A DNA stretch of 64,000 nucleotides, from assembly GCF_048403405.1 (NCBI RefSeq), contig NZ_CP183129.1, one strand, 5' to 3'. This DNA is from Escherichia coli. Its GTDB lineage: Bacteria; Pseudomonadota; Gammaproteobacteria; Enterobacterales; Enterobacteriaceae. Shown here one piece after another: positions 703-24,644 of this stretch. The position numbers were made by a program, and so were the translations under genes. The stretch's first letter is position 1. The number at the start of each line of letters is the position of its first letter. Under the pieces are notes generated by a model, which was not told where the DNA came from, did not search any database, and saw nothing but the letters and a program-made list of their open reading frames with translations.

Positions 703-1893
703 TTAATTGCTGTTAACCGAGGTGACCAGATTTGCCAGGTATTTATCGGTAATACGCTGGCGCAGGGTCAGGTTTTCGAGAGGAGGCACCGGTGTATAGT
801 CGTAGTCGATATACAGTTTTCCGGCCTTGAGGGTTTCCGCATCGTTGGATTCTTCGCTGAACCAGCAGGTCGCATCCACGATATAGCCGTTTGTTTTCAG
901 CTCACGGAATTTGGCATTGATACCGTCAACGATGTCGCGAATCAGCGTTGCGGTGATGGGCTTGTCCACCGCCCACATGTGCGCCTCAGCCATCGTGTCG
1001 GCCAGCACCTGCGCGGTGCGGGTGTAGTTTTCAAAGAGGAACAGCGGGTCATCAGAGCAGGTACGGTTACCCCAGAAGCGGAAACCGTCGCGGCGAATCA
1101 GCGTAGTGACGCCTGACTCGTTAAGCAGGTCAGCATCGGTGCCGGACTCCTGCAAATCCCAGAATACAGATGCACTGATGCCGGTAACACCGTTCACCCC
1201 AACGTTGGACAGCGTTTTATGCCAGCCCTGCTCCTGGTCGATTTTAGCGCGCAGCCCCAGCGCACGGGCAGTGGCATACGCGGTGGCGGTGGTACTGGTG
1301 ACCGTATCCCATGCGAGGAAATCCGGCCAGATGACCATCAGCTCACGCTGGCTGAAATTCTGGCGGTAGGCTTTCACCTCAGAAATGGTTTTACAGCCCC
1401 ATGCGCTGATATACCCGAAAGCGCGCAGCTTCTGACAGACTGATGCCAGTGCAACAGCCACCTCTTTGGTATCCAGTCCCGGCACGCCGAGAATACGCGG
1501 TTTAACACCGGTTACCGACTCCGCCGCCAGCAGGGCTTTCAGTCCGGTGTACTGACCGTTTTCGTCGGTGGTACCGATGATATTGGAAACGGTCTGCGCA
1601 AGTTTCGTTTCTTCGTCGTCGCCGGTGCCGTCTTCCACGCGCACAACAACGGTGACCGGTTTTGACTGGTCAGCGATGGCCTGTAACGACGCCGCCAGCG
1701 TGCCTTTTTTACCGGCCTTTGCAATTGCGCTCTGCACATTGGTAATCAGCACCGGTTTATTGAGGGGGAAGGTTTCCGCATCTGCATCGCTGGCCGTGCA
1801 GACCATGCCGACAATGGCAGTGGATACGGTGGAAATGACGCGGGTGCCGTCGTTAATCTCCAGCACCTGCACGCCGTGATGATAGTCACTCAT
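703..1893 (-). CDS. FI: Contractile tail sheath protein FI
   Basis: ATG at 1893 (MSDYHHGVQVLEINDG...), GGAG 9 nt upstream; ~396 aa; tail-sheath-like sequence. The supplied ORF extends upstream to a non-ATG start. Confidence 0.9.
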   Translation of the reverse strand: MSDYHHGVQVLEINDGTRVISTVSTAIVGMVCTASDADAETFPLNKPVLITNVQSAIAKAGKKGTLAASLQAIADQSKPVTVVVRVEDGTGDDEETKLAQTVSNIIGTTDENGQYTGLKALLAAESVTGVKPRILGVPGLDTKEVAVALASVCQKLRAFGYISAWGCKTISEVKAYRQNFSQRELMVIWPDFLAWDTVTSTTATAYATARALGLRAKIDQEQGWHKTLSNVGVNGVTGISASVFWDLQESGTDADLLNESGVTTLIRRDGFRFWGNRTCSDDPLFLFENYTRTAQVLADTMAEAHMWAVDKPITATLIRDIVDGINAKFRELKTNGYIVDATCWFSEESNDAETLKAGKLYIDYDYTPVPPLENLTLRQRITDKYLANLVTSVNSN

Positions 1894-2353
1894 CCGTCTA
1901 ACTCCGTGGTTAATGGGTGAGTGGTATTTTCTGTTGTGCAGAGCATGAGACGCTATTTGACCTGGCTGGTCAGTGGATGAAACAACAGATAAAGAAAAGG
2001 CGGACAATCCGCCCGCCTGTCATGATTTGTACTCACTTATTTCCCGACTGACAATTTACATAGCCAAAACGCTATCAAATCTGACAGTCTGCTTTGAGCG
2101 AGGAGCGGAAGTTAAGGGGCGGTTTAGTATCTAACATGATCTATATGAAATAGTGATTCTTGGCGTATTGCTAATACAACCCCGATTTGATGTAACTCTT
2201 GTCCACTTTCATCTAACTTCCTCTTGTTCAGGTTCATTTTTAACTGCTAATATGCAGTATATAAAGGAACATGGGTTTACCGTTGTAAGATGCTGCTGAA
2301 AGGTAAGCATAATTATATTGTTAGGTGTCTTTTTATTTTTAAAGGCTTTAAAC

Positions 2354-3460
2354 ATGTCTAAAACACGCGATGATTTCAGCTCAAAAACTGTAAGAGCTCT
2401 AGCACTACGGGCTGGTTATAGGTGCTCATTCCCCGGTTGTAATCAGCTTACAGTTGGCCCCAGTGATGAATCCTTAACATCTATCACAAATATTGGGGTA
2501 GCTGCGCACATTCATGCCGCAGCTCCTGGGCCATTAGCAAGACGATATGATCCTAATCAAACACCAGATGAAAGGAAAGATATAAATAATGGCATCTGGA
2601 TGTGTGTTAATCACAGCGTTGAAATTGATAGAGATGAAATTAGATATACAGCAGAAATTCTTAAAGAAATGAAGAAAGCCCACGAAGAAGAGATTAAAAA
2701 AGAGGTGAGCAATGGTTCTTCATCAACCAAACATAATGATTTCATTGCAATAGGTATAGACATTATCGTTTTCGGAGAGCTTACCGGAATCTCAACCAAT
2801 GAGTGGACTATAAAATTTGCAAACTTCTTTACTGGCGATTTATCTAAGTTAATATCTTTCAACGAAAGATTCCACTCCATCCCTACCGAAGAAAAATTTA
2901 TTCTAGTTAATCAACTTGGTGAGGGGCGTTTGTTATCAGCACCAATAAAATTAAATAAATTACCAGATAGCTATGAAGTAATCGTCCCTGTTGAAATAGA
3001 CACTCCGCGCATCAATTGCAATAGCCTCCCAATGGATTTAGATATTTTCACGACAGGCGATTTATTTGTAAATAGTTCTGGTGATATAGCTACGATATCG
3101 GGGTTTGAAGCTTTACCACAAAAAATATATACTTCCCTTTCCACCATTAGAGGTGAGATTTATTCCCATCCAACATTGGGTTCCAGAATAAGACAGTTCT
3201 TCCATGACTTTGAAGGAACAATGTGGCTAGACAAATTAGTTAAATTAGAAGTTATACGCTTATCTTGTATACCAATTTTTGATTCAATCACAAAAAACAA
3301 ATACACTCCATTACATTGTGTAAAAAATGTCAAAAATATTCGGGTGATACCAACTGAATATAAAGATAGCAAATTACCTATTGAGTTCACCCTTGATATT
3401 GAAGGTTTCGGCATCTGGTCCAAAGAAATAAGTGTTTTCTCACCTAAATACGATGAATAA
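2354..3460 (+). CDS. Cargo protein with N-terminal HNH-like nuclease motif (C-x4-C ... AAHIHAA ... NGIWMCVNHSVEIDRD) and ~250-aa C-terminal region of unknown function
   Basis: ATG at 2354 preceded by AAAGG; 368 aa; low-GC by eye; sits at the P2 Z/fun variable position between G and FI, on the strand opposite to the late genes. Motif assignment is by eye, not by HMM. Confidence 0.6.
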   Translation: MSKTRDDFSSKTVRALALRAGYRCSFPGCNQLTVGPSDESLTSITNIGVAAHIHAAAPGPLARRYDPNQTPDERKDINNGIWMCVNHSVEIDRDEIRYTAEILKEMKKAHEEEIKKEVSNGSSSTKHNDFIAIGIDIIVFGELTGISTNEWTIKFANFFTGDLSKLISFNERFHSIPTEEKFILVNQLGEGRLLSAPIKLNKLPDSYEVIVPVEIDTPRINCNSLPMDLDIFTTGDLFVNSSGDIATISGFEALPQKIYTSLSTIRGEIYSHPTLGSRIRQFFHDFEGTMWLDKLVKLEVIRLSCIPIFDSITKNKYTPLHCVKNVKNIRVIPTEYKDSKLPIEFTLDIEGFGIWSKEISVFSPKYDE

Positions 3461-3983
3461 AATTGAAGTTCTTGAACCGCTATATTTGGCTCCGGTATTT
3501 ACTCCGTGAGTGGTATCCTAGGGCCCTGTGCGGAGGATTTCATTGTAATGCTCATACGCTGTAGCCAGGTTCATGTTTCTTCAGCAAGGCCATTTGGGCT
3601 AGTGGCCTGCTCCCCATTGCTCCACACAAAAAATTATTCGTTACGTCCGCTCCTGGCACACAGTAGACATCGAGAGACAGCTTCGAGCGATAATCAGAAG
3701 TTCGCAATTGTCATCACCCAAAAGTTGTTTATAACTTGTAGCAAGGTGCATTGTTCAACGTTGAGTTGGTCAAGTTCAGTTAATGATCGGACGATATCTC
3801 ACTCTGCCCAATAGCACATCTGTTTTACGGGAAGTGAGTTTCAACATCACGAGCTTTGTTAGTAAACATCACTTATTTATTAAGAATATGTTTCATAGAA
3901 CAGGGCCGGAGAACTTAATTTCATATTCTAAAAAGTGATGCGCAGACATCACTTTAAACTTTTTAAAGCGCGAAAACCCTACG

Positions 3984-4985
3984 TCAGAATTTGACAGTAG
4001 GAACGGTTGGCCAGATTCTAGCAATAGACTTAAACATAGTCTCCACAATATATTCGAGAACCTCATCATCAGGCTCTTTCATTAATGCTTTTACTTTATT
4101 TATTCTATCCTGAAGTGAAGGGTGAGATTTTGAAAAACCCCAGTTGTTTTTACCTAACATAGTAACGCTGAATAATGCACAGTATATAGAAAGTCTTCTT
4201 TTCCTGCTCACCAACACACGGTCATACATAGACTCTTCACAGTAATTATCTATATGGTCAAGGATGAATTTATTTGCAAACTCATCACATGAGAACTCTT
4301 CATTATGAGCTTGTTCTTGTGTGAATTCATTCATATCATAACTGGTACCTTCCTGCTGATGAATGATATGTCGGACTTCATGCAAAAATGCCCAAGCAGC
4401 AGCAATAATTGCTAATTCAGCTGTTGCTCTTTTAACTGGTTCGATTTTACTGTCAGGCATGGTGCCAGGTTCAGGAATTCCTATTGGTAGTGGTTTTTCA
4501 TCCGGTACCTCATCTTTAGCCGTGTTTTCAAAAGCGCAGATTAACTGTTCAAAGTTTACGAAGTCTGCCGAACTGAAATCAGCAAGTTCTTCCTGTAGCT
4601 CCTCGAGTAAAACATGTAATTCTGACTCGGTTGAGACTAATGATATTTTCTTTGAGTCAAAAAGATCTAAAATAGAATCCCTTTTATCGATAATGTCTTC
4701 AATTTTTTTATTTTGCTCAGTGTTTATTGCTTCGTAGCCCGCCATTGCAGCAAATGTTCCTATCCAGAACGTGCGCAAAACACGATGATTGAAGCGGATA
4801 AATCGATACATCCCCGCATCAAAAATAAATTTACCGTCTGTATGATTATCGCTATGATTTTGGAAGGTCATGTTAAATTTAGACCAGAACTCATCCAGTT
4901 CATTCTGACGCTCTGGAATAGAGGCTAAAAACATTTTTCTTACGCTGTCCTGAACTGTTTTATCTTCATTATGCTCTTCAAACAT
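3984..4985 (-). CDS. Cargo protein with HExxH motif (AWAFLHEVRHIIH), possible zinc metallopeptidase-like protein; acidic N-terminal half
   Basis: ORF 3984..5045; preferred start is ATG at 4985 with GGTGAG upstream (333 aa); alternative TTG at 5045 (353 aa). Convergent with the HNH-like gene; low-GC by eye. Confidence 0.55.
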   Translation of the reverse strand: MFEEHNEDKTVQDSVRKMFLASIPERQNELDEFWSKFNMTFQNHSDNHTDGKFIFDAGMYRFIRFNHRVLRTFWIGTFAAMAGYEAINTEQNKKIEDIIDKRDSILDLFDSKKISLVSTESELHVLLEELQEELADFSSADFVNFEQLICAFENTAKDEVPDEKPLPIGIPEPGTMPDSKIEPVKRATAELAIIAAAWAFLHEVRHIIHQQEGTSYDMNEFTQEQAHNEEFSCDEFANKFILDHIDNYCEESMYDRVLVSRKRRLSIYCALFSVTMLGKNNWGFSKSHPSLQDRINKVKALMKEPDDEVLEYIVETMFKSIARIWPTVPTVKF

Positions 4986-5248
4986 TTGCTCACCTATATT
5001 GCTGTTAATTTTATCTAATGATGAACCGAGTGGGTTGTTTACCAAGCCTCATGTTACATGTTTTTTGCTTTCCGAATATTTAAGCGTTAGAAGCAAGTAG
5101 GAAAAACGTAGAGCAGTTAACCAAGGCTTTCTACAGGCAGATTAACATAACTTGGTCAGGAATGTCCGCTCTTGGCACATAGCGGACTGTCAGATTAGGC
5201 TTTACTCTGTGCTATAGATATGTAAGCTCACACCAGAGATCATACAAC

Positions 5249-5776
5249 TTATTGCGGCATTTCCGGCCATTCGGGATTTGCAGGATCCACACGACTGACC
5301 AGAACGCTGTAGCGTTCCCATGCTTCCAGTCGGCTGCGTTCCTCATCCGTCGCCATATTCAGCCTGACAGCGCGTTCCAGCGGCAAAATCACGGATTCAG
5401 CTTCGGAAAGTAAAGCTGCCTTTTGTGATTCTGCCTGTTGCTCCTGTTCATCTGCCGTATAAATCCGCTTAATCACGGCACCATCCTTAAACATCCATTT
5501 ACCTGAGTCATCAGCACGTCGGTTGGAGGTAATATCAGGAACCTCGACAACGCTGAAACCTTCAGGGTTAAGCGTTGAAGCATCTCTGGTGATGCCGACA
5601 ATTATATTATTCTCGTCGTAAACAATCTTTATCGTGTCTTCCTGAAAATTACTTACTTCCTCATACCAGTTTTTTCCCTCTTCGGACCATAACCAGATAA
5701 CATCAAAATTTTTTGTCAGTTGATATTGGGCAACAGTTTTTGGATTACCCGCAGTAATATTTTTTAAATGCTGCAT
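5249..5776 (-). CDS. G: Tail fibre assembly protein gpG
   Basis: 175 aa, [19 protein letters not shown]..., immediately downstream of H as in P2. Confidence 0.85.
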
Positions 5777-5779
5777 AAA

Positions 5780-7825
5780 TTACACCTGTGCGACGTTATA
5801 CCATGTGCCATTGATGTATTTTTGTATTGGCCTGAATACTGCGGGGTCATCACCATCGACTTCACCGACAATACCAAGCCCGGTAATTACGTGCCCTGCT
5901 TTCTCATACATCACCCCTTTCTGCATGGTCTGGACAACACGTGTGCCAAGTCTGATATCTCTCACATAGCGGGAATCAAAGTTACCGTAATCCGAGGGAT
6001 TAACACGCCCCGTAATATTTATGGTCTTATTACTTTGAATGCTTCCGGAAACAAAGCGCATAACATGGACGTTATTAGCATAAACATCCAGATTACCATC
6101 GCCATTTTGTTTAAATCCGGTGTCGTTATCACCAAGAACAATAGAGTTCCCACCCAACGCGTTATTCGTGCCAAGTGCCAGCCCGCCATCAATCCTGGCA
6201 CCATTACCAACAGACACAACTCCTGTTCTTAAGTTGATGCCGAATGGCCTTAATGGCCCAATATCTCCATTTTCACCCTCATTTTCTCGTGTAGGAATGA
6301 TATACAGGTTTTCTTCAGAACGGCGAAAAATAGCACCAAAAGATGAATTAAATATCCTCAGCGCATTGACTGTAGATATTTTTACTTCACTGCTGAAAAG
6401 GGCTTTAACAAGAACATACAGAGCATCCCATTTAAGATTCATCAGGTCTTTTGTTGTGGTGCTCTGGCGACTTCTCCATTTGAAATATTCATTGCCGTTA
6501 TCCCCCGTTTCAAACCACATGTATGAATCAGTGTCACCATCGGCATCATTTTTAAATCCAATCTTCGCCCAGTCAGTATTTCGAATCCAGGCAAGGATTG
6601 AGTCGTTTTCAAAAGTAAGTCCACCGGACAAGGTATCGCCATTTTTTTGCACGGCGTTCCCGGCTCGGTTTACCGTTTCCTGTAAACCGAGATATTCGAT
6701 AACGGCGGCAACGGTCGATTTAGCCAGAATATCCCGCCCGACTTTTGTCAGGGTCGCCAGGCTGGCAACATCATTCCCCGTAAAATACGGAAACCTGTCT
6801 GCCGCAGTAGCAAGCCCCGCCAGCGCCGTCAAAGTGGCATCTTTCGGTTGCTTACCCGCAAGCGCATTAGTCATGGTGGTAGCAAAATTCGGGTCATTGC
6901 CCAGCGCCGCCGCCAGCTCGTTCAGCGTATTCAGTGCGTCAGGCGACGAGTCTACAAGGGCGGCAATCGCGGCCATAACGAAAGCCGTGTTTGCGATCTG
7001 AGTATTATTCGTTCCCTGTCGCGCAGTTGGCGTCGTTGGCGTTCCGGTCAGTGCAGGGCTGTTTAATGGCGCTTTCTTGTTCGTTTCATCCATTACCGTC
7101 TTAACGGCTTTTGGTGTTGCGGCGAGCGTTTCAGACGTGCTGTTGGTCGCACTACTGAGCTGGACAAGGCCTTTTCGCGCTATGGTGGCGTCCTGTGCGG
7201 TATATTTCCCGTTAGCAAGGTCATACGCGGCCTTTACCGCTTTCGGCGTTGCGGCCAGTGTTTCAGACGTGCTGTTGGTCGCACTGCTTAACTGAGTAAA
7301 ACCTTTTGCGGTCAGCGAGGCGTCAGGGTGACGTCGTGACTGTTCATGTTCTGCAATTTTGTCATCAACGTAATCCTGCGTTGCCATCACCGTTGTGGTG
7401 TCAATGGTCAGCTCCACTGAGGCCACACTGCTGACGATGATGACCATGCGGCAGGTCTGCGAACGCCCTGAGCCTTCGGCAAGGGCTGGCTTATAACTTT
7501 CGGCCATGTTCGCCACGGCAATTAGCGTTCCCGCATCATCGTACAGGCCAAGTTCACGCATCCAGAAACCGCCCACCTCCGGCGGAATAACCAGCTCTGC
7601 GATAATATAATTACTGTTTCGTTTGTCCTGGCTGATTTTGTTCAGCGCATGTCGCCAGACTTCGTGGATAAGCCCGGTCTGTCCGGCATCCGGGACAGGC
7701 AATTTACCACCGCCATCCCCGACGGCCATCGTGGTAATGTTGACCTTCCGCCCTCCCGGTGCGGTTGCCGCTGCCAGCTTTGCTGCACCGGCAGTGGTGA
7801 TAACGGTTTTGAATTTTGTGCTCAT
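5780..7825 (-). CDS. H: Tail fibre protein gpH
   Basis: 681 aa; conserved N-terminus MSTKFKTVITTAGAAKLAAA; internal repeats LSSATNSTSETLAATPKAVK; variable C-terminal receptor-binding region. Confidence 0.9.
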   Translation of the reverse strand: MSTKFKTVITTAGAAKLAAATAPGGRKVNITTMAVGDGGGKLPVPDAGQTGLIHEVWRHALNKISQDKRNSNYIIAELVIPPEVGGFWMRELGLYDDAGTLIAVANMAESYKPALAEGSGRSQTCRMVIIVSSVASVELTIDTTTVMATQDYVDDKIAEHEQSRRHPDASLTAKGFTQLSSATNSTSETLAATPKAVKAAYDLANGKYTAQDATIARKGLVQLSSATNSTSETLAATPKAVKTVMDETNKKAPLNSPALTGTPTTPTARQGTNNTQIANTAFVMAAIAALVDSSPDALNTLNELAAALGNDPNFATTMTNALAGKQPKDATLTALAGLATAADRFPYFTGNDVASLATLTKVGRDILAKSTVAAVIEYLGLQETVNRAGNAVQKNGDTLSGGLTFENDSILAWIRNTDWAKIGFKNDADGDTDSYMWFETGDNGNEYFKWRSRQSTTTKDLMNLKWDALYVLVKALFSSEVKISTVNALRIFNSSFGAIFRRSEENLYIIPTRENEGENGDIGPLRPFGINLRTGVVSVGNGARIDGGLALGTNNALGGNSIVLGDNDTGFKQNGDGNLDVYANNVHVMRFVSGSIQSNKTINITGRVNPSDYGNFDSRYVRDIRLGTRVVQTMQKGVMYEKAGHVITGLGIVGEVDGDDPAVFRPIQKYINGTWYNVAQV

Positions 7826-10340: not shown

Positions 10341-11126
10341 ATGGTCAGCTATAATGTGACTAATGTGTGGGGGCTAATCGTTTTTTTCCTTTGTAGCTTT
10401 GCAGTATTAGCATTTTTTAGCTTTGGTAAAAGTAACCTTATGAGGCTTATTGCACATTATTTCAATTTTGGATATTCAGACAAAAAATTAAAAAGACTTG
10501 ACCGCGAGTGGCGCGACATTCAACTATTTAAAATAATTAATGGAATCAATGTATCAGGCATTGAAAATGTGAGAATGATACAGCAGGGACTGATTGATGG
10601 AAAACTAAAAACATCGTATTTTTTCCTTACTCGCATCTGGGGTGACATAACAAAACCACCACACATAATTAAAACAATAATTGTAATTCTGGCCAGTATT
10701 TTTTACATTCTCCTCGCATGTTACATACACAACGAACAATCCGTTATAGTAAGGGATGCCATAGGCATACCATATAAAAACATGATGTACTATGTTTATA
10801 GTGACAAAGTTCTTTTATCCTTCAAAAATAAAGCAGTTGAATTTAATAAAACTTATAGCCTTGCCGATTGCAAGAGACTGCAAAACGTATTTATAAAAGA
10901 CACACTTCCTGAGATCGCCTGCAATAAGCTCTTACAGCTAAACGAGGAGGACTCCGAATGGTTAAGCCAGGAGATTAAAGATAATAACAGTCACAAAAAA
11001 GCATTATTAATACTATCCCTCGTCTATTTCACTTCAGGTCTGGTTATATTCCTGTCATATACAAAATTCTTTTACGCCAATAAGAAGGTTTTAGAATACA
11101 AAGCATCAAATAAAAATCACTCATAA
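10341..11126 (+). CDS. Cargo membrane protein with three hydrophobic segments, at the P2 orf30 position; function unknown
   Basis: ATG at 10341 with AAGGAG 7 nt upstream; 261 aa; hydrophobic helices near residues 9-28, ~110-130 and ~222-241; strongly AT-rich by eye; opposite strand to flanking late genes; followed by a 12-bp-stem hairpin. Confidence 0.6.
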   Translation: MVSYNVTNVWGLIVFFLCSFAVLAFFSFGKSNLMRLIAHYFNFGYSDKKLKRLDREWRDIQLFKIINGINVSGIENVRMIQQGLIDGKLKTSYFFLTRIWGDITKPPHIIKTIIVILASIFYILLACYIHNEQSVIVRDAIGIPYKNMMYYVYSDKVLLSFKNKAVEFNKTYSLADCKRLQNVFIKDTLPEIACNKLLQLNEEDSEWLSQEIKDNNSHKKALLILSLVYFTSGLVIFLSYTKFFYANKKVLEYKASNKNHS

Positions 11127-20405: not shown

Positions 20406-21113
20406 CTATATATACTTCCTTTTTACTCTACTTAATTCTATCACTGATGAGGAGTGACAAAATGACAAATTAATAGTATCGATATAATCCAAAATTTGAC
20501 TCTCAACCTCAATAAAAATATTTTTGGGCCCATTACTAATCGATATACCGATTTCATCCAAAACAGCCATCATTTTTCTCTGATGAGTTTTATATTTATA
20601 GTCTTTATTTTCCTCTGTAATATGTGCATTGGCTTCCTCAATAACACATTTGATTCTAGATATTATTTCTAGATAATCTCTCGAAACAGATATATCACCG
20701 CCTTGCGCTTCAGGGAACATAACCCTATACCATCTAAAAAAATTAACTTTCTCTGGATAGATGCTACTTCTTTTAGTTAACTCAGCACTTGCAAATTCTC
20801 TAAACATCGTCAGATGACTAGTGTAATTACTATTATTATTATTTTTAACTCCAGCGTTATATGTCATCAAAGCAATCATAACACCAAAAACGGTAACAAA
20901 AGTTGTTATAAGCCATCCAAACGCCTGAAAATACATTACTATACCAGATGTTTTTTCCGCAAAAAATTTTAAGCACTGGCTATCGAAGCATATATCACGC
21001 TCATATAGCTTTTCATTCTGAATAGTTTCAAAAAGAGAAATTAGCGAAAAAATCAAAAAAAGAGCTGACGACACACCGACAATATATTTGAGAAGTCTAA
21101 TATTTGCATTCAT
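20406..21113 (-). CDS. Cargo protein with two N-terminal transmembrane helices, translationally coupled to the upstream reverse transcriptase; candidate effector
   Basis: ATG at 21113 overlaps RT stop (ATGA); 235 aa; hydrophobic segments IVGVSSALFLIFSLISLF and GIVMYFQAFGWLITTFVTVFGVMIALMTY; AT-rich by eye. Confidence 0.65.
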   Translation of the reverse strand: MNANIRLLKYIVGVSSALFLIFSLISLFETIQNEKLYERDICFDSQCLKFFAEKTSGIVMYFQAFGWLITTFVTVFGVMIALMTYNAGVKNNNNSNYTSHLTMFREFASAELTKRSSIYPEKVNFFRWYRVMFPEAQGGDISVSRDYLEIISRIKCVIEEANAHITEENKDYKYKTHQRKMMAVLDEIGISISNGPKNIFIEVESQILDYIDTINLSFCHSSSVIELSRVKRKYI

Positions 21114-22336
21114 AATGGTTTTAAAGATGCCAATCTAGATTTAAAACACTCCAGTTTTTCTTTAAATGATTCAGAGCGAGTAAGAATAATCATCTTATAT
21201 CTCGTCAAATCATATTTTCTTTTATACCAATGTTTATTTTGATTACCTTTCGAATACGACAACTCTAAACTTTTTATAGCTGCATCAATCACAGCAACAT
21301 CTCTTTTAGATGGCATCGGTTTTATTGCCTGCAACTGTTTCTTGAATGATTCATATTTTTCATGCCCAACACGGCCAAGCTTATTCACTCTCCCCATACA
21401 TCTATTGAATTCTTTTCTGTATGCAACACTTGTTTTTGTGTTATTTTTTGCCGCCAGTAATTTCAAATTATGTATAGATGCCCTGATTCTTTTGACTTCA
21501 TCGGATGGTAGTCGAGGTGAGTCATAGTCAACTCTTAAACCATGTACTTTTATAGGTTCAGATGAACAGTGAAATATTTTTGTTTTGTGCTTATTTATCG
21601 GCAAGTCATGCTCAGAAAGCATCCTCTCTATATGGCTTTGCATTTGAGAAAAATCATAATTACTTATTTTAGATGACACGGTAATATCATCTACCAAACG
21701 CGTATAAACAAGTCCTTTCCTCTGCGCACGTCTTACCACATCCCCTTCAACAGCGAATAAACACAAAGTTGCTATATAGCTTGATGTTAAGGCCCCCTGT
21801 ACGACAAAATCATCCTTAGTACATATATCCACCAAGTATTCAAGAGCCTCATCCTTAATATGCAATATCTCCTCAAACACGCTCCTAACCAGATCTCTAT
21901 GGATATTATCGAAAAAATTACTTATATCCACCTTGAGAACTGTTTTTGCTCCACAATGAGCCTTTGCACATGAAACATAGTCACGTTTGACATTAGAATT
22001 TAAAACATCATTTTTACTGGGAACTGAACCAAACAAAAATGAAGGAAAAACAACCAATTCCTTAAAAATACGTTTATTAATTCTACTCTGTAATAATCTC
22101 ATTTTAGGATGTAGGGAGTAGACAATCCGTTTGCTTCCGTCAATTTTGGGAATTTCTTTTAGAGTATATTTCTCATCTAATGATAATTCTGCAATAGCTT
22201 TAAGCTCTTCAACAGAAATCGATAAAGCCTTTGACAACTTTTCAAGTGTTGTGATAGGAGCATTGGATTTGCTGTATGGTTTAAATTTATCCATAAACAT
22301 ACCATTCAAATTCAAAGTTACGTACGGTCTTCCCAT
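21110..22336 (-). CDS. Reverse transcriptase (retron-like or Abi-type), defence-associated candidate
   Basis: RT motifs in the translation: IPKIDGSKRIVY (fingers), VLKVDISNFFDNI (motif A), QGALTSSYIA (motif B-like), YTRLVDDITVSS (YxDD; DNA ~21671-21706), and KVHGLRVDYD resembling the retron VTG region. Start uncertain: ATG candidates at 22336, 22300, 22294; the supplied ORF extends to a TTG at 22384. Confidence 0.8.
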   Translation of the reverse strand: MGRPYVTLNLNGMFMDKFKPYSKSNAPITTLEKLSKALSISVEELKAIAELSLDEKYTLKEIPKIDGSKRIVYSLHPKMRLLQSRINKRIFKELVVFPSFLFGSVPSKNDVLNSNVKRDYVSCAKAHCGAKTVLKVDISNFFDNIHRDLVRSVFEEILHIKDEALEYLVDICTKDDFVVQGALTSSYIATLCLFAVEGDVVRRAQRKGLVYTRLVDDITVSSKISNYDFSQMQSHIERMLSEHDLPINKHKTKIFHCSSEPIKVHGLRVDYDSPRLPSDEVKRIRASIHNLKLLAAKNNTKTSVAYRKEFNRCMGRVNKLGRVGHEKYESFKKQLQAIKPMPSKRDVAVIDAAIKSLELSYSKGNQNKHWYKRKYDLTRYKMIILTRSESFKEKLECFKSRLASLKPL

Positions 22337-22625
22337 ACTCAAGGGTGGAACAGCAGAGATGCTTACATCAACAATTGTCAGCAACAGCCTCTGCTATCTT
22401 TCGACCGTACGTAATGTCGTCGGCTACGGCACCATCGTAGTTGACGACGGTGGGGCCTCGCTGATAGGTCCATAGTGGACGCTTTTTTGTAAAAGCAAAA
22501 ACTGACAATTTAATGTTGTTGACTGCCGCATACCAAGCGAATCGCTGGTGCGCTAAGAATAATGCAACAAAAAAATAAGAATTTCAACCGGGTAACTGCA
22601 AGCCAGCGACATCGTTTAGCGCGCA

Positions 22626-22644
22626 GTGCTTTCCCCGCCTCGCC
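22626..22644 (-). other. cos: cos cohesive-end site (19 nt, GGCGAGGCGGGGAAAGCAC on the minus strand)
   Basis: Exact match to the P2 cohesive-end sequence as remembered; embedded in a locally GC-rich noncoding stretch between the RT gene and the 612-aa gene. Confidence 0.75.
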
Positions 22645-22805
22645 CGCCCGCTTCGTGGGGCGGTTTTAATGCAGGTGCAATACCGCTTTTGAGCCACGCC
22701 CGTCCTGGCGGACGCACGGCCGGAACATGCAACTCCGGCACATGCAAAACCATGCACATATTGCACGCAGAAAGATAAATGCCAAAATACCTAAATCAAC
22801 TTCCA

Positions 22806-24644
22806 TTAATCAGCCAGATAAGGTTCAACTTTATCTTCCCATACACTAAATAAAGGCAAACAAGTTAAATAAAAGATAAAGACACAGGCAAAAACTGAAG
22901 TTGGTTGATAACAATGATTTACAGTATACCTGCCATGAGCCATCGTGTGTCTAATTGCAGCACCACCTTTCATATTGAACAATAAATCCATAGTCAATAC
23001 ATGATCACTATCAAAAACACCTTCCATTTCACTCCTATAATTTGCAAGCATTTGAGATAGGCTAGTAGCCTCCTCAAAAAGCGACACATCTATTTTCGTT
23101 GTTTCTTTTCTTCTTAATTCTAAAATCCATCTAATTGAATTCTCCAATTGCGGCAATAACAAATAACAGGCAGACACATAATCTCCCTGCCAAAGCTTAT
23201 AAAACCCCAAAGAAAATATTTCTGCATACCCAGGTGGAACAAATGCACTTTGTTGTGAGATTGGGTCAAATGTATTTTCATTTAATGAATACCTAGCCAA
23301 CACACTTTGCCTAACGACTTCAAACTCACCACAAACATAGACCTGATGCTCAATGTTACTAGTTCTTAAATAATTTGCACAAGCATCATTTAAACTTATA
23401 TCCCCCGCAGGATCCAAAGGTGAACGACTTGCTACAACGCGCCCTCTATCATCATAAACAACCGTTTCACTCATATTAAGAAAAAAATGTTTTTTAGCAT
23501 CGGAACGAGCTCTTTCCATAATTTCACTGGCACTTACAATCTTAAATCTAGCAATTAAAGTTTTAATTACCCTTGAGAAATCCAATTGATTATAAACATG
23601 CTCTTTCTGAGCGATAACATCACTAAGATCCATTGGTATTGCAAAGAAGTGCATTTCATCATTGATTTGATCTCGAATAGAATTCAATTCCTCTCTAATC
23701 TTTTTAATTTCTTCATTCATTCCACCAATTGCTCTAAATTCGCCAAGAGCAACTCTTAACCAATGAGCCTTCAATATTGAAGATGAAGACTGTTCAAATT
23801 GAGCCAATGTTATTTCTGACGCTTTAATTCTGCACCGTCTTCCTTGCTCTTCCATATCGTTTTTAACATATAATTCAGACGCAAAATAAAACAATTTTTT
23901 CACTGCATCAAAATAAGACGCTCCACAATGCTCATCAGCTATCTTTTCTGCATTCTCAGCCAATTGCAAGGGACACAATAAATTATTCTTATAAAGAATT
24001 TCAGAAACTCTTAATACACCGGTGAATATACCAGAGTCTATTAATACATGATATAACCTTAATGTCGAATCAACTATCCCCCCTTGTAGTTGTTTTTTCC
24101 TGCCAATAAGCATGCGCGATATTGCGATACCTCTATCCAAGCAGTCAACAACATCAAAAATATGGATATCACCTGACTCTTGTTTTTCTATTAAAGTATC
24201 GCAAGCATCATTAACCATTAGAGAATATGACTCTATTGCTTTATTGGCAGAGTCTATATCCTTACGGTTATTTATCCATAAAACATCACACACCCTAGAT
24301 ATAATATAAGGATTATCGGAGTTTTCTTTAATACAAGTTAATATTGTTGAAAAACTCTCCTTATAATCTGAAGGCCTATAGCCCCTCTCAGGATAGAGAA
24401 TGATTTTTGGCTCAAAACCGATAATATCACCAGACCTAGAAAATTTAAAATTAAACAACGCACGTAATAAATAGCAAAGCCGCCAAGAACTTACATCGTT
24501 TTTTAGCTTGTAAGATGACAACAACTGAACAAAATAAGACTCCATATCAAAATGAGAATAACTTCTTGGCGATGATAATATACTGGCGTATTCACTTTTT
24601 TTAAAATCATCAACTGAAATAGAAAAAACATCAAACTCGCTCAT
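22806..24644 (-). CDS. Cargo protein of unknown function (612 aa) with C-terminal HEPN-like R-x4-H motif (AIRHTMAHGRY); candidate abortive-infection RNase
   Basis: ATG at 24644 with GGTGAGGA upstream; no P-loop seen; AT-rich by eye; occupies the P2 tin/old position between A and cos. The HEPN call rests on one short motif. Confidence 0.6.
   Translation of the reverse strand: MSEFDVFSISVDDFKKSEYASILSSPRSYSHFDMESYFVQLLSSYKLKNDVSSWRLCYLLRALFNFKFSRSGDIIGFEPKIILYPERGYRPSDYKESFSTILTCIKENSDNPYIISRVCDVLWINNRKDIDSANKAIESYSLMVNDACDTLIEKQESGDIHIFDVVDCLDRGIAISRMLIGRKKQLQGGIVDSTLRLYHVLIDSGIFTGVLRVSEILYKNNLLCPLQLAENAEKIADEHCGASYFDAVKKLFYFASELYVKNDMEEQGRRCRIKASEITLAQFEQSSSSILKAHWLRVALGEFRAIGGMNEEIKKIREELNSIRDQINDEMHFFAIPMDLSDVIAQKEHVYNQLDFSRVIKTLIARFKIVSASEIMERARSDAKKHFFLNMSETVVYDDRGRVVASRSPLDPAGDISLNDACANYLRTSNIEHQVYVCGEFEVVRQSVLARYSLNENTFDPISQQSAFVPPGYAEIFSLGFYKLWQGDYVSACYLLLPQLENSIRWILELRRKETTKIDVSLFEEATSLSQMLANYRSEMEGVFDSDHVLTMDLLFNMKGGAAIRHTMAHGRYTVNHCYQPTSVFACVFIFYLTCLPLFSVWEDKVEPYLAD

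Follow-up and report, generated by a model that had tools for sequence, protein, structure and literature searches.

Introduction

To our knowledge, the Lit protease of the e14 prophage of Escherichia coli K-12 (b1139) is the only Lit protease ever studied, and we know of no Lit structure that has been solved. The enzyme reportedly cuts EF-Tu between Gly59 and Ile60. The literature on e14 Lit gives its target as EF-Tu and its trigger as the Gol peptide of gp23 (the major capsid protein of T4) bound to EF-Tu. A 2026 preprint records Lit in one P2-like prophage only. The G/FI ("Z/fun") hotspot of phage P2 is known for anti-phage cargo. The main text of Rousset 2022 makes no mention of Lit or HNH. 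According to a review that quotes them, Nilsson et al. (2004) described inverted repeats around Z/fun, and site-specific exchange at these repeats was a proposal of the same authors.

The gene described here lies in a stretch of 64,000 nucleotides of an E. coli genome (contig NZ_CP183129.1), which is referred to below as the window. Judged from its sequence, the encoded protein is distantly related to Lit, a zinc protease of phage exclusion, and belongs to Peptidase U49, not to DUF955/ImmA. The grammar of the repeats at the borders of its cassette is more interesting than the protein.

Location and features of the gene

The window begins within the tail genes of a P2-like prophage, all located on the minus strand (tube, 172–690; sheath, 703–1893), with the genes for tail-fibre assembly (5249–5776) and the fibre (5780–7825) on the same strand. 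Between the sheath and fibre-assembly genes the GC content falls from approximately 0.56 to 0.35–0.40, and this low-GC stretch is the classical P2 G/FI hotspot. It contains the Lit-family (Peptidase U49) CDS at 3984–4985 (−) and, convergent to it, a gene for an HNH protein at 2354–3460 (+).

The Lit-like CDS (stop codon at 3984–3986) encodes 333 amino acids from an ATG at 4985 (RefSeq WP_000461305.1, GenBank CAD54901.1) and has a GC content of 0.376, against approximately 0.56 for the sheath gene. The earlier note had described an AT-rich ORF with ATG 4985 as the preferred start, and this is confirmed: a Shine-Dalgarno sequence, AGGTGA (4991–4996), lies 5 nt upstream of this ATG, which is the start in both the RefSeq and the GenBank record. 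Use of a TTG at 5045 would extend the same ORF (3984–5045, −) to 353 amino acids. However, this codon lies upstream of the −10 element annotated in GenBank AJ512680, the record of CAD54901.1 (window 5008–5014), and is thus unlikely to be the start codon.

The sole HExxH of the protein is HEVRH at residues 202–206 of 333 (H202-E203-x-x-H206), a predicted zinc-binding and catalytic motif whose codons occupy exactly the position claimed for them, 4368–4382 (−). The N-terminal half is acidic, also as claimed, with 34 D/E against 18 K/R and a pI of 4.6. No hydrophobic segment was found (KD19 maximum of 1.22), nor any transmembrane or signal segment, and the protein is therefore expected to be cytoplasmic.

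Two further AT-rich regions were observed elsewhere in the prophage. The first (20406–24644, −) lies between the portal gene and gene A, at the position of the old/tin hotspot, and contains a type IV retron pair (RT_IV, E 1e-176; 2TM_IV, E 4e-85) as well as a 612-amino-acid PDC-S39 candidate. The second (10341–11126, +; GC 0.34–0.37) is an ORF of 261 amino acids between the baseplate V and tail-completion genes and opposite in orientation to the tail genes, with phrog_2407 (unknown function) as its sole match, no PADLOC hit and no flanking repeat. This is the position at which P2 carries orf30.

Family assignment and predicted structure

The protein had been thought otherwise unrecognisable, but Pfam, NCBIfam, PADLOC and PHROGs all match the ORF. 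Pfam, listed to an independent E of 10, gave Peptidase_U49 (PF10463) over residues 205–317 with an i-E of 5.9e-6. The NCBIfam Lit model (NF007238, "phage exclusion protein Lit") matched over nearly its full length with an E-value of 3.4e-22 (model positions 13–269 of 309; query residues 56–355 in the 353-residue numbering, or 36–335 in the 333-residue numbering), and the PADLOC Lit model matched at 9.5e-10. As the NF007238 score was 79 bits against a curated equivalog cut-off of 274 bits, the protein should not be classed as an e14 Lit orthologue, while the significant PF10463 match places it within the broad Lit/Peptidase U49 family. This domain was present in all 38 homologues found in a collection of 5.8 billion proteins.

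The protein is a new member of an established family and already bears the correct name: in 5 of 5426 complete E. coli genomes, RefSeq lists the identical protein as "phage exclusion protein Lit family protein". The two-gene segment corresponds to GenBank AJ512680, "Bacteriophage P2-EC46 proviral Z-region, ORF1 and ORF2", of which the Lit-like gene is ORF1 and has been in GenBank since 2003. A literature search on "P2-EC46" found no paper.

An AlphaFold2 model built on an alignment of 31 sequences reached a pLDDT of 93.4 and a pTM of 0.91. Nearly all of its best 28 matches in AFDB50 are named Peptidase U49, Lit peptidase or phage exclusion protein, with five of the 28 lacking an informative name. 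The family matches have TM scores of 0.6–0.97 and mostly extend near full length (approximately 320 columns), so the model has the full-length fold of Peptidase U49 members. Its HExxH helix lies in a zincin-type domain that superposes on solved zinc proteases and, because of the fold matches to Peptidase U49/Lit proteins, the motif is predicted to belong to a zincin-type catalytic domain. Searching PDB sequences with a profile of the family yielded no real relative, and a Foldseek search of the model against the PDB gave no match below E = 1.

In the alignment, HEVRH pairs with H160-E161-I-S-H164 of e14 Lit. H202, E203 and H206 are invariant in the 31 homologues, at identities down to 17%, which argues that the motif is no chance occurrence. 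The invariant positions of the 31 sequences, e14 Lit included, are P24, E25, W74, P173, E190, W198, H202, E203, H206, Q210, E229, E230, D234, K262, R263, H288, P289 and R294. A profile of this alignment retrieved 1013 clusters (50% identity, E ≤ 1e-3). All 185 representatives compared were nearer to the Lit-like protein than to e14 Lit, which suggests that e14 Lit stands far outside the bulk of a large branch that is itself unstudied.

The enterobacterial 333-residue clade carries an acidic insertion of approximately 44 residues (pI 4.2) at about residues 103–146 (DNA approximately 4548–4679) that is absent from members of approximately 290 residues. It lengthens a helical hairpin in the model and may be a specificity or oligomerisation element.

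In every context of another clade, that of a 296-residue Lit-like protein (P0008), an ORF of 145 amino acids shares 13 nt with the 3′ end of the protease gene (L008 5879–6316, L010 2479–2916, L011 1704–2141). No Pfam hit was obtained for this ORF, which may encode a partner of the protease in the P0008 clade only. It was rejected as a conserved partner of the family, being confined to that clade and having no equivalent in the window.

Proposed role of the Lit-like protease

By sequence and predicted fold the protein is a member of Lit/Peptidase U49 with an intact HExxH, and its single gene forms a mobile, repeat-bounded module. It is probably a cytoplasmic zinc metalloprotease that serves as a self-promoted, stand-alone phage-exclusion module of the P2-like prophage. 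By analogy with e14 Lit, the enzyme would be latent in the lysogen until a protein made late by a superinfecting phage licenses it. The licensed protease would then cleave an essential translation factor, and the resulting shutdown of translation would lead to abortive infection and protection of sister lysogens. The protein has only 23% identity to e14 Lit, over 135 residues and limited to the catalytic half (BLASTP), so that a different trigger phage is possible, as is even a different substrate.

Taken further, this divergence makes it possible, if considerably less probable, that the Lit fold has been put to a different job, with a trigger other than a capsid protein and/or a substrate other than EF-Tu, either in defence or in lysogenic conversion. 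Such a reading is plausible because of the low identity, the outlying position of e14 Lit within the family and the clade-specific insertion, and the depositors of AJ512680 (2004) labelled the product just "putative lysogenic conversion protein". It is weakened by the near full-length alignment to the NCBIfam Lit model, which includes the N-terminal domain, and by the full-length structural matches to annotated Lit peptidases.

The Lit cassette and its borders

The Lit-like gene and its own expression signals form a cassette of approximately 1.5 kb which is present in at least three unrelated genomic places. Its upstream border is a 23-nt hairpin repeat of the "T-type", GTCCGCTATGTGCCAAGAGCGGA, at 5165–5187 (−), which is the inner end of the "left inverted repeat" of AJ512680. 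Between this repeat and the gene lies a leader of approximately 180 nt (4986–5164, −) carrying the Shine-Dalgarno sequence and the −10 element described above. It moves with the gene and is 80–90% conserved in the unrelated loci L004 and L005. A palindromic hairpin, terminator-like on either strand, is located approximately 30 nt past the stop codon (3932–3955). The downstream border is a degenerate inverted copy of the "A-type" (3676–3698, +). The homology to L004 ends here, at a point that in L004 is an intact inverted A-type copy.

Back-to-back with this border stands a T-type copy, GTCTACTGTGTGCCAGGAGCGGA (3646–3668, −), that opens the HNH cassette, a junction of the kind seen between cassettes elsewhere. 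The hotspot closes on the side of the sheath gene (FI) with an A-type copy, GTCTGCTTTGAGCGAGGAGCGGA (2087–2109, +), which is the inner end of the "right inverted repeat" of AJ512680. The 23-nt motif, GTCYGCTNWGWGCSANNAGCGGA, thus has three copies in the window, at 2087–2109 (+), 3646–3668 (−) and 5165–5187 (−), where none was expected from 100 shuffles.

By blastn, window positions 5176 to 3685 are 90% identical to positions 5806 to 7300 of L004 over 1497 nt, and L005 is 79% identical to the window over the upstream repeat, leader and ORF. In both loci the homology starts within the upstream repeat, in its right half, and the flanks beyond the homology are unrelated. Copies of the repeat occur at 1202, 4083, 5795 and 7287 in L004 and at 5804, 7109 and 7150 in L005. 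Since the homology is bounded by repeats and the flanks are unrelated, the Lit-like gene is a discrete mobile cassette. The borders give exact coordinates for each module and hint at how the modules move.

An Rfam scan of 1800–5500 (E ≤ 1) found no RNA family in the 520-bp gap between the two genes or in the repeats. A consensus scan for promoters and terminators showed no enrichment over shuffles, and the hairpin past the stop codon was the only such feature used.

Relationship to the neighbouring HNH gene

The gene at 2354–3460 (+) is an independent cargo gene outside the Lit module, encoding a protein with an HNH nuclease N-terminus and a further C-terminal part. The C-terminal half has a weak Pfam match to the sheath initiator (gp25-like; i-E 0.0034) and is matched more clearly by PHROGs baseplate families (5.9e-9). 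The N-terminus resembles CBASS/SAVED-HNH effectors, the N-terminus of Shedu SduA, and PDC-M68A. From these profile matches, a nuclease with a possible phage-baseplate-like domain would make an unusual candidate defence protein. Assignment to the two-gene system PDC-M68 was rejected, as the PDC-M68A model matches the HNH N-terminus only and the protease has no PDC-M68 match.

It had been left open whether the Lit-like gene is an independent system or a partner of the HNH gene. A metalloprotease and an HNH protein acting jointly would fit their presence in one hotspot and the fact that, among 5426 complete E. coli genomes, any with one gene also has the other (five genomes). However, those five copies, at least 99.8% identical, represent a single near-clonal prophage lineage, so that co-occurrence among them is uninformative. 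The co-occurrence check across genomes proposed in the earlier note was run by tblastn with both proteins, and no co-occurrence outside the P2-EC46-type prophage was found in seven other Lit-like and three other HNH contexts. The settings of the seven Lit-like homologues (87, 74, 57, 55, 43, 43 and 30% identity) all differ and have no common neighbour: an island with a reverse-transcriptase gene and a gene for an SLFN/AlbA_2-domain protein, an integrase and OLD-TOPRIM island adjoining smpB, an ICE carrying a T4SS and ArdC, an integrase-fragment/Fic region, an integrase island that contains SIR2/AbiEii, a second ICE, and a Variovorax island. No HNH homologue was found within 5–6 kb of the diverged Lit-like homologues. 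The HNH homologues in their three contexts stand alone beside a T4SS, a DUF4238 gene or a Type ISP restriction enzyme, and without Lit. The sizes of the two families are also far apart, with at least 276 full-length HNH homologues across Proteobacteria against 38 for the Lit-like protein in the same database.

The arrangement of the DNA points the same way. The genes are convergent and 520 bp apart with the cassette junction in the gap, and the Lit module alone is shared with L004 at 90% DNA identity. Given the repeat copy between them, the two genes belong to separate cassettes, and the presence of two cassettes in tandem is an independent argument for two separate systems. A joint system is therefore very unlikely, and the HNH gene is not a partner of the Lit-like gene; of the two options considered at the outset, independence stands. 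The tandem cassettes also account for two unrelated cargo genes in one hotspot, which had been thought worthy of note and is not unusual for this hotspot. It should be noted that this negative outcome is the more useful one, namely that the two genes are to be studied separately rather than as a pair.

Other explanations

The gene had been proposed to encode a zinc-peptidase-like defence component of DUF955/ImmA type. Such an ImmA/IrrE-type (M78) protease would cleave a cognate repressor and so control induction or a toxin module. In its favour, the HExxH is followed by a further histidine (HEVRHIIH), as in M78 motifs, and the label "IrrE N-terminal-like" is attached to two family-related fragments in AFDB. 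Against it, Pfam reported no M78/DUF955 match for the protein at an independent E ≤ 10, PF10463 being the only family returned. An adjacent HTH/Xre gene, as would be expected for a cognate repressor, is absent from all seven Lit-like contexts, and the best solved-structure matches of the model (Foldseek, PDB; none below E = 1) are M48/M56 zincins rather than IrrE. We therefore consider this type of activity highly improbable. The predicted functional class in the proposal is retained and the family is replaced, since the profile and structure searches gave Lit/Peptidase U49 and not ImmA/DUF955. It is hardly credible that the gene is a mere passenger of the hotspot, in decay or without function, as rarity in E. 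coli genomes and the single P2-like prophage of the 2026 preprint might suggest, because the ORF is intact with every invariant residue present, the upstream region is conserved, and the protein of P2-EC46 and a 54-member sequence cluster are full-length and 99% identical to it.

Organisation and distribution of the repeat

The 23-nt site consists of 7-bp inverted arms, GTCCGCT and AGCGGAC, with an asymmetric centre between them. The centre occurs as one of two coupled alleles, TGTGCCA ("T") or TGAGCGA ("A"). In viral contigs, a scan found the motif in at least 120 loci, and the figures that follow are among the matches listed. The centre was T in 120 copies, A in 125 and another sequence in 7. 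Convergent T...A pairs, which represent cassettes, numbered 70 and were 344 nt to several kb apart, back-to-back A/T pairs, which represent junctions, numbered 36 with a fixed spacing of approximately 41 nt, and other arrangements were few. Of the 120 loci listed, just approximately 22 had P2 tail genes. To its 5′ side the motif has several conserved backbone families, and to its 3′ side variable sequence. The site marks exact borders between backbone and cargo.

Sixty distinct cassettes were counted among the same matches, most of them AT-rich and holding one or two genes (for example, between convergent sites, L022 1478–4467, L027 2901–5053, L031 5843–7101 and L132 979–2371). Several match defence models, namely NsnA/PD-T4-2_A-like DUF262 proteins, a TIR-TM protein, a trypsin-like protease effector and PDC-S35 TIR-like proteins. 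Others carry an arsHRBC arsenic-resistance set, LysR regulators, SDRs, an MFS transporter or acetyltransferases, as well as many unknowns. A system of defence-only cassettes was accordingly rejected, given the ars genes, regulators and transporters carried and the copies in metagenome-assembled genomes (MAGs) that lie between ordinary genes.

Among the matches listed for reference genomes, the motif occurred in Enterobacterales and, in multiple copies, in MAGs of Hyphomicrobium (L231, L235, L237), Hyphomicrobiales and Nitrosospira (L190, L192, L194). The MAG copies lie between ordinary genes in one orientation, every 1–2 kb, in a REP-like manner, and a double hairpin, TCCGCTTTACCCCCGAAAGCGGAC-N20-GTCCGCTAAGTGCCAAAAGCGGAC, is frequent among them. 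The site thus behaves as a REP-type element, and its conservation across alpha-, beta- and gamma-proteobacteria is unusual.

In P2 itself (L261, positions 836 and 2934) the same pair surrounds fun(Z), with the T-type copy after G and the A-type copy before pF. It was also observed that an inverted A-type copy with three mismatches lies 8 nt past the stop codon of e14 lit (L003 3598–3620, −), followed by a T-run, where none was found in 200 shuffles. This copy doubles as a terminator-like hairpin.

The repeat sequence was found in none of the papers searched, and the hotspot papers among them made no mention of such repeats; the grammar and breadth of the repeat may therefore be undescribed. 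Integron attC sites were rejected by inspection, the R″/R′ boxes (RYYYAAC/GTTRRRY) being absent or inconsistent and the unit only 23–36 nt. Sites of the dif/pdif type were likewise rejected, as the repeat has no known sequence resemblance to dif.

Movement of the cassettes may be site-specific or driven by short homology. We tentatively suggest, as a doubtful but attractive extension, that the Lit-like gene could be cargo of a widespread, little-described cassette-exchange system in which a putative recombinase moves defence genes back and forth between chromosomal islands and the hotspots of prophages, and that its branch of Lit could have another trigger and perhaps another substrate. If so, recombinase-mediated cassette exchange would have a natural counterpart in this system, with each cassette carrying one allele per end, inverted, and with a fixed spacing of approximately 41 nt at the junctions.

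Comparison with known systems

The Lit-like gene shares with Fun(Z) and other G/FI cargo of P2 the locus, the AT-rich moron character and the flanking inverted repeats. However, the proteins are unrelated to it, and two tandem cassettes are present here instead of one. With ImmA/IrrE proteases (M78, DUF955) it shares the character of a small cytoplasmic HExxH zincin on mobile elements, but it has neither an M78 match nor a partner repressor. The M48/M56 zincins (BepA, HtpX-like 3c37, ZMPSTE24 and the BlaR1 sensor domain) have no sequence-level relationship to the protein, which differs from them in having no membrane segments, an unrelated N-terminal domain and a candidate third ligand, E229/E230, just 23–24 residues past H206.

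As a P2-borne and very divergent addition to the Lit family, the protein is a finding of modest stakes. A tractable E. coli member of the uncharacterised branch could nevertheless show whether sensing by "capsid peptide plus EF-Tu" is general. Among the closest described systems is e14 Lit, with which the protein shares the Pfam family, the aligned HExxH and the EE, D, KR, HP and R positions, as well as a size of approximately 300 amino acids, the predicted cytoplasmic location, and the organisation as a single prophage-borne gene with an inverted copy of the hairpin repeat downstream. It differs from e14 Lit in lying on the larger, uncharacterised branch with the 44-residue acidic helical insertion, and in its position within the tail hotspot of an active-type P2 prophage, whereas e14 lit adjoins the e14 integrase.
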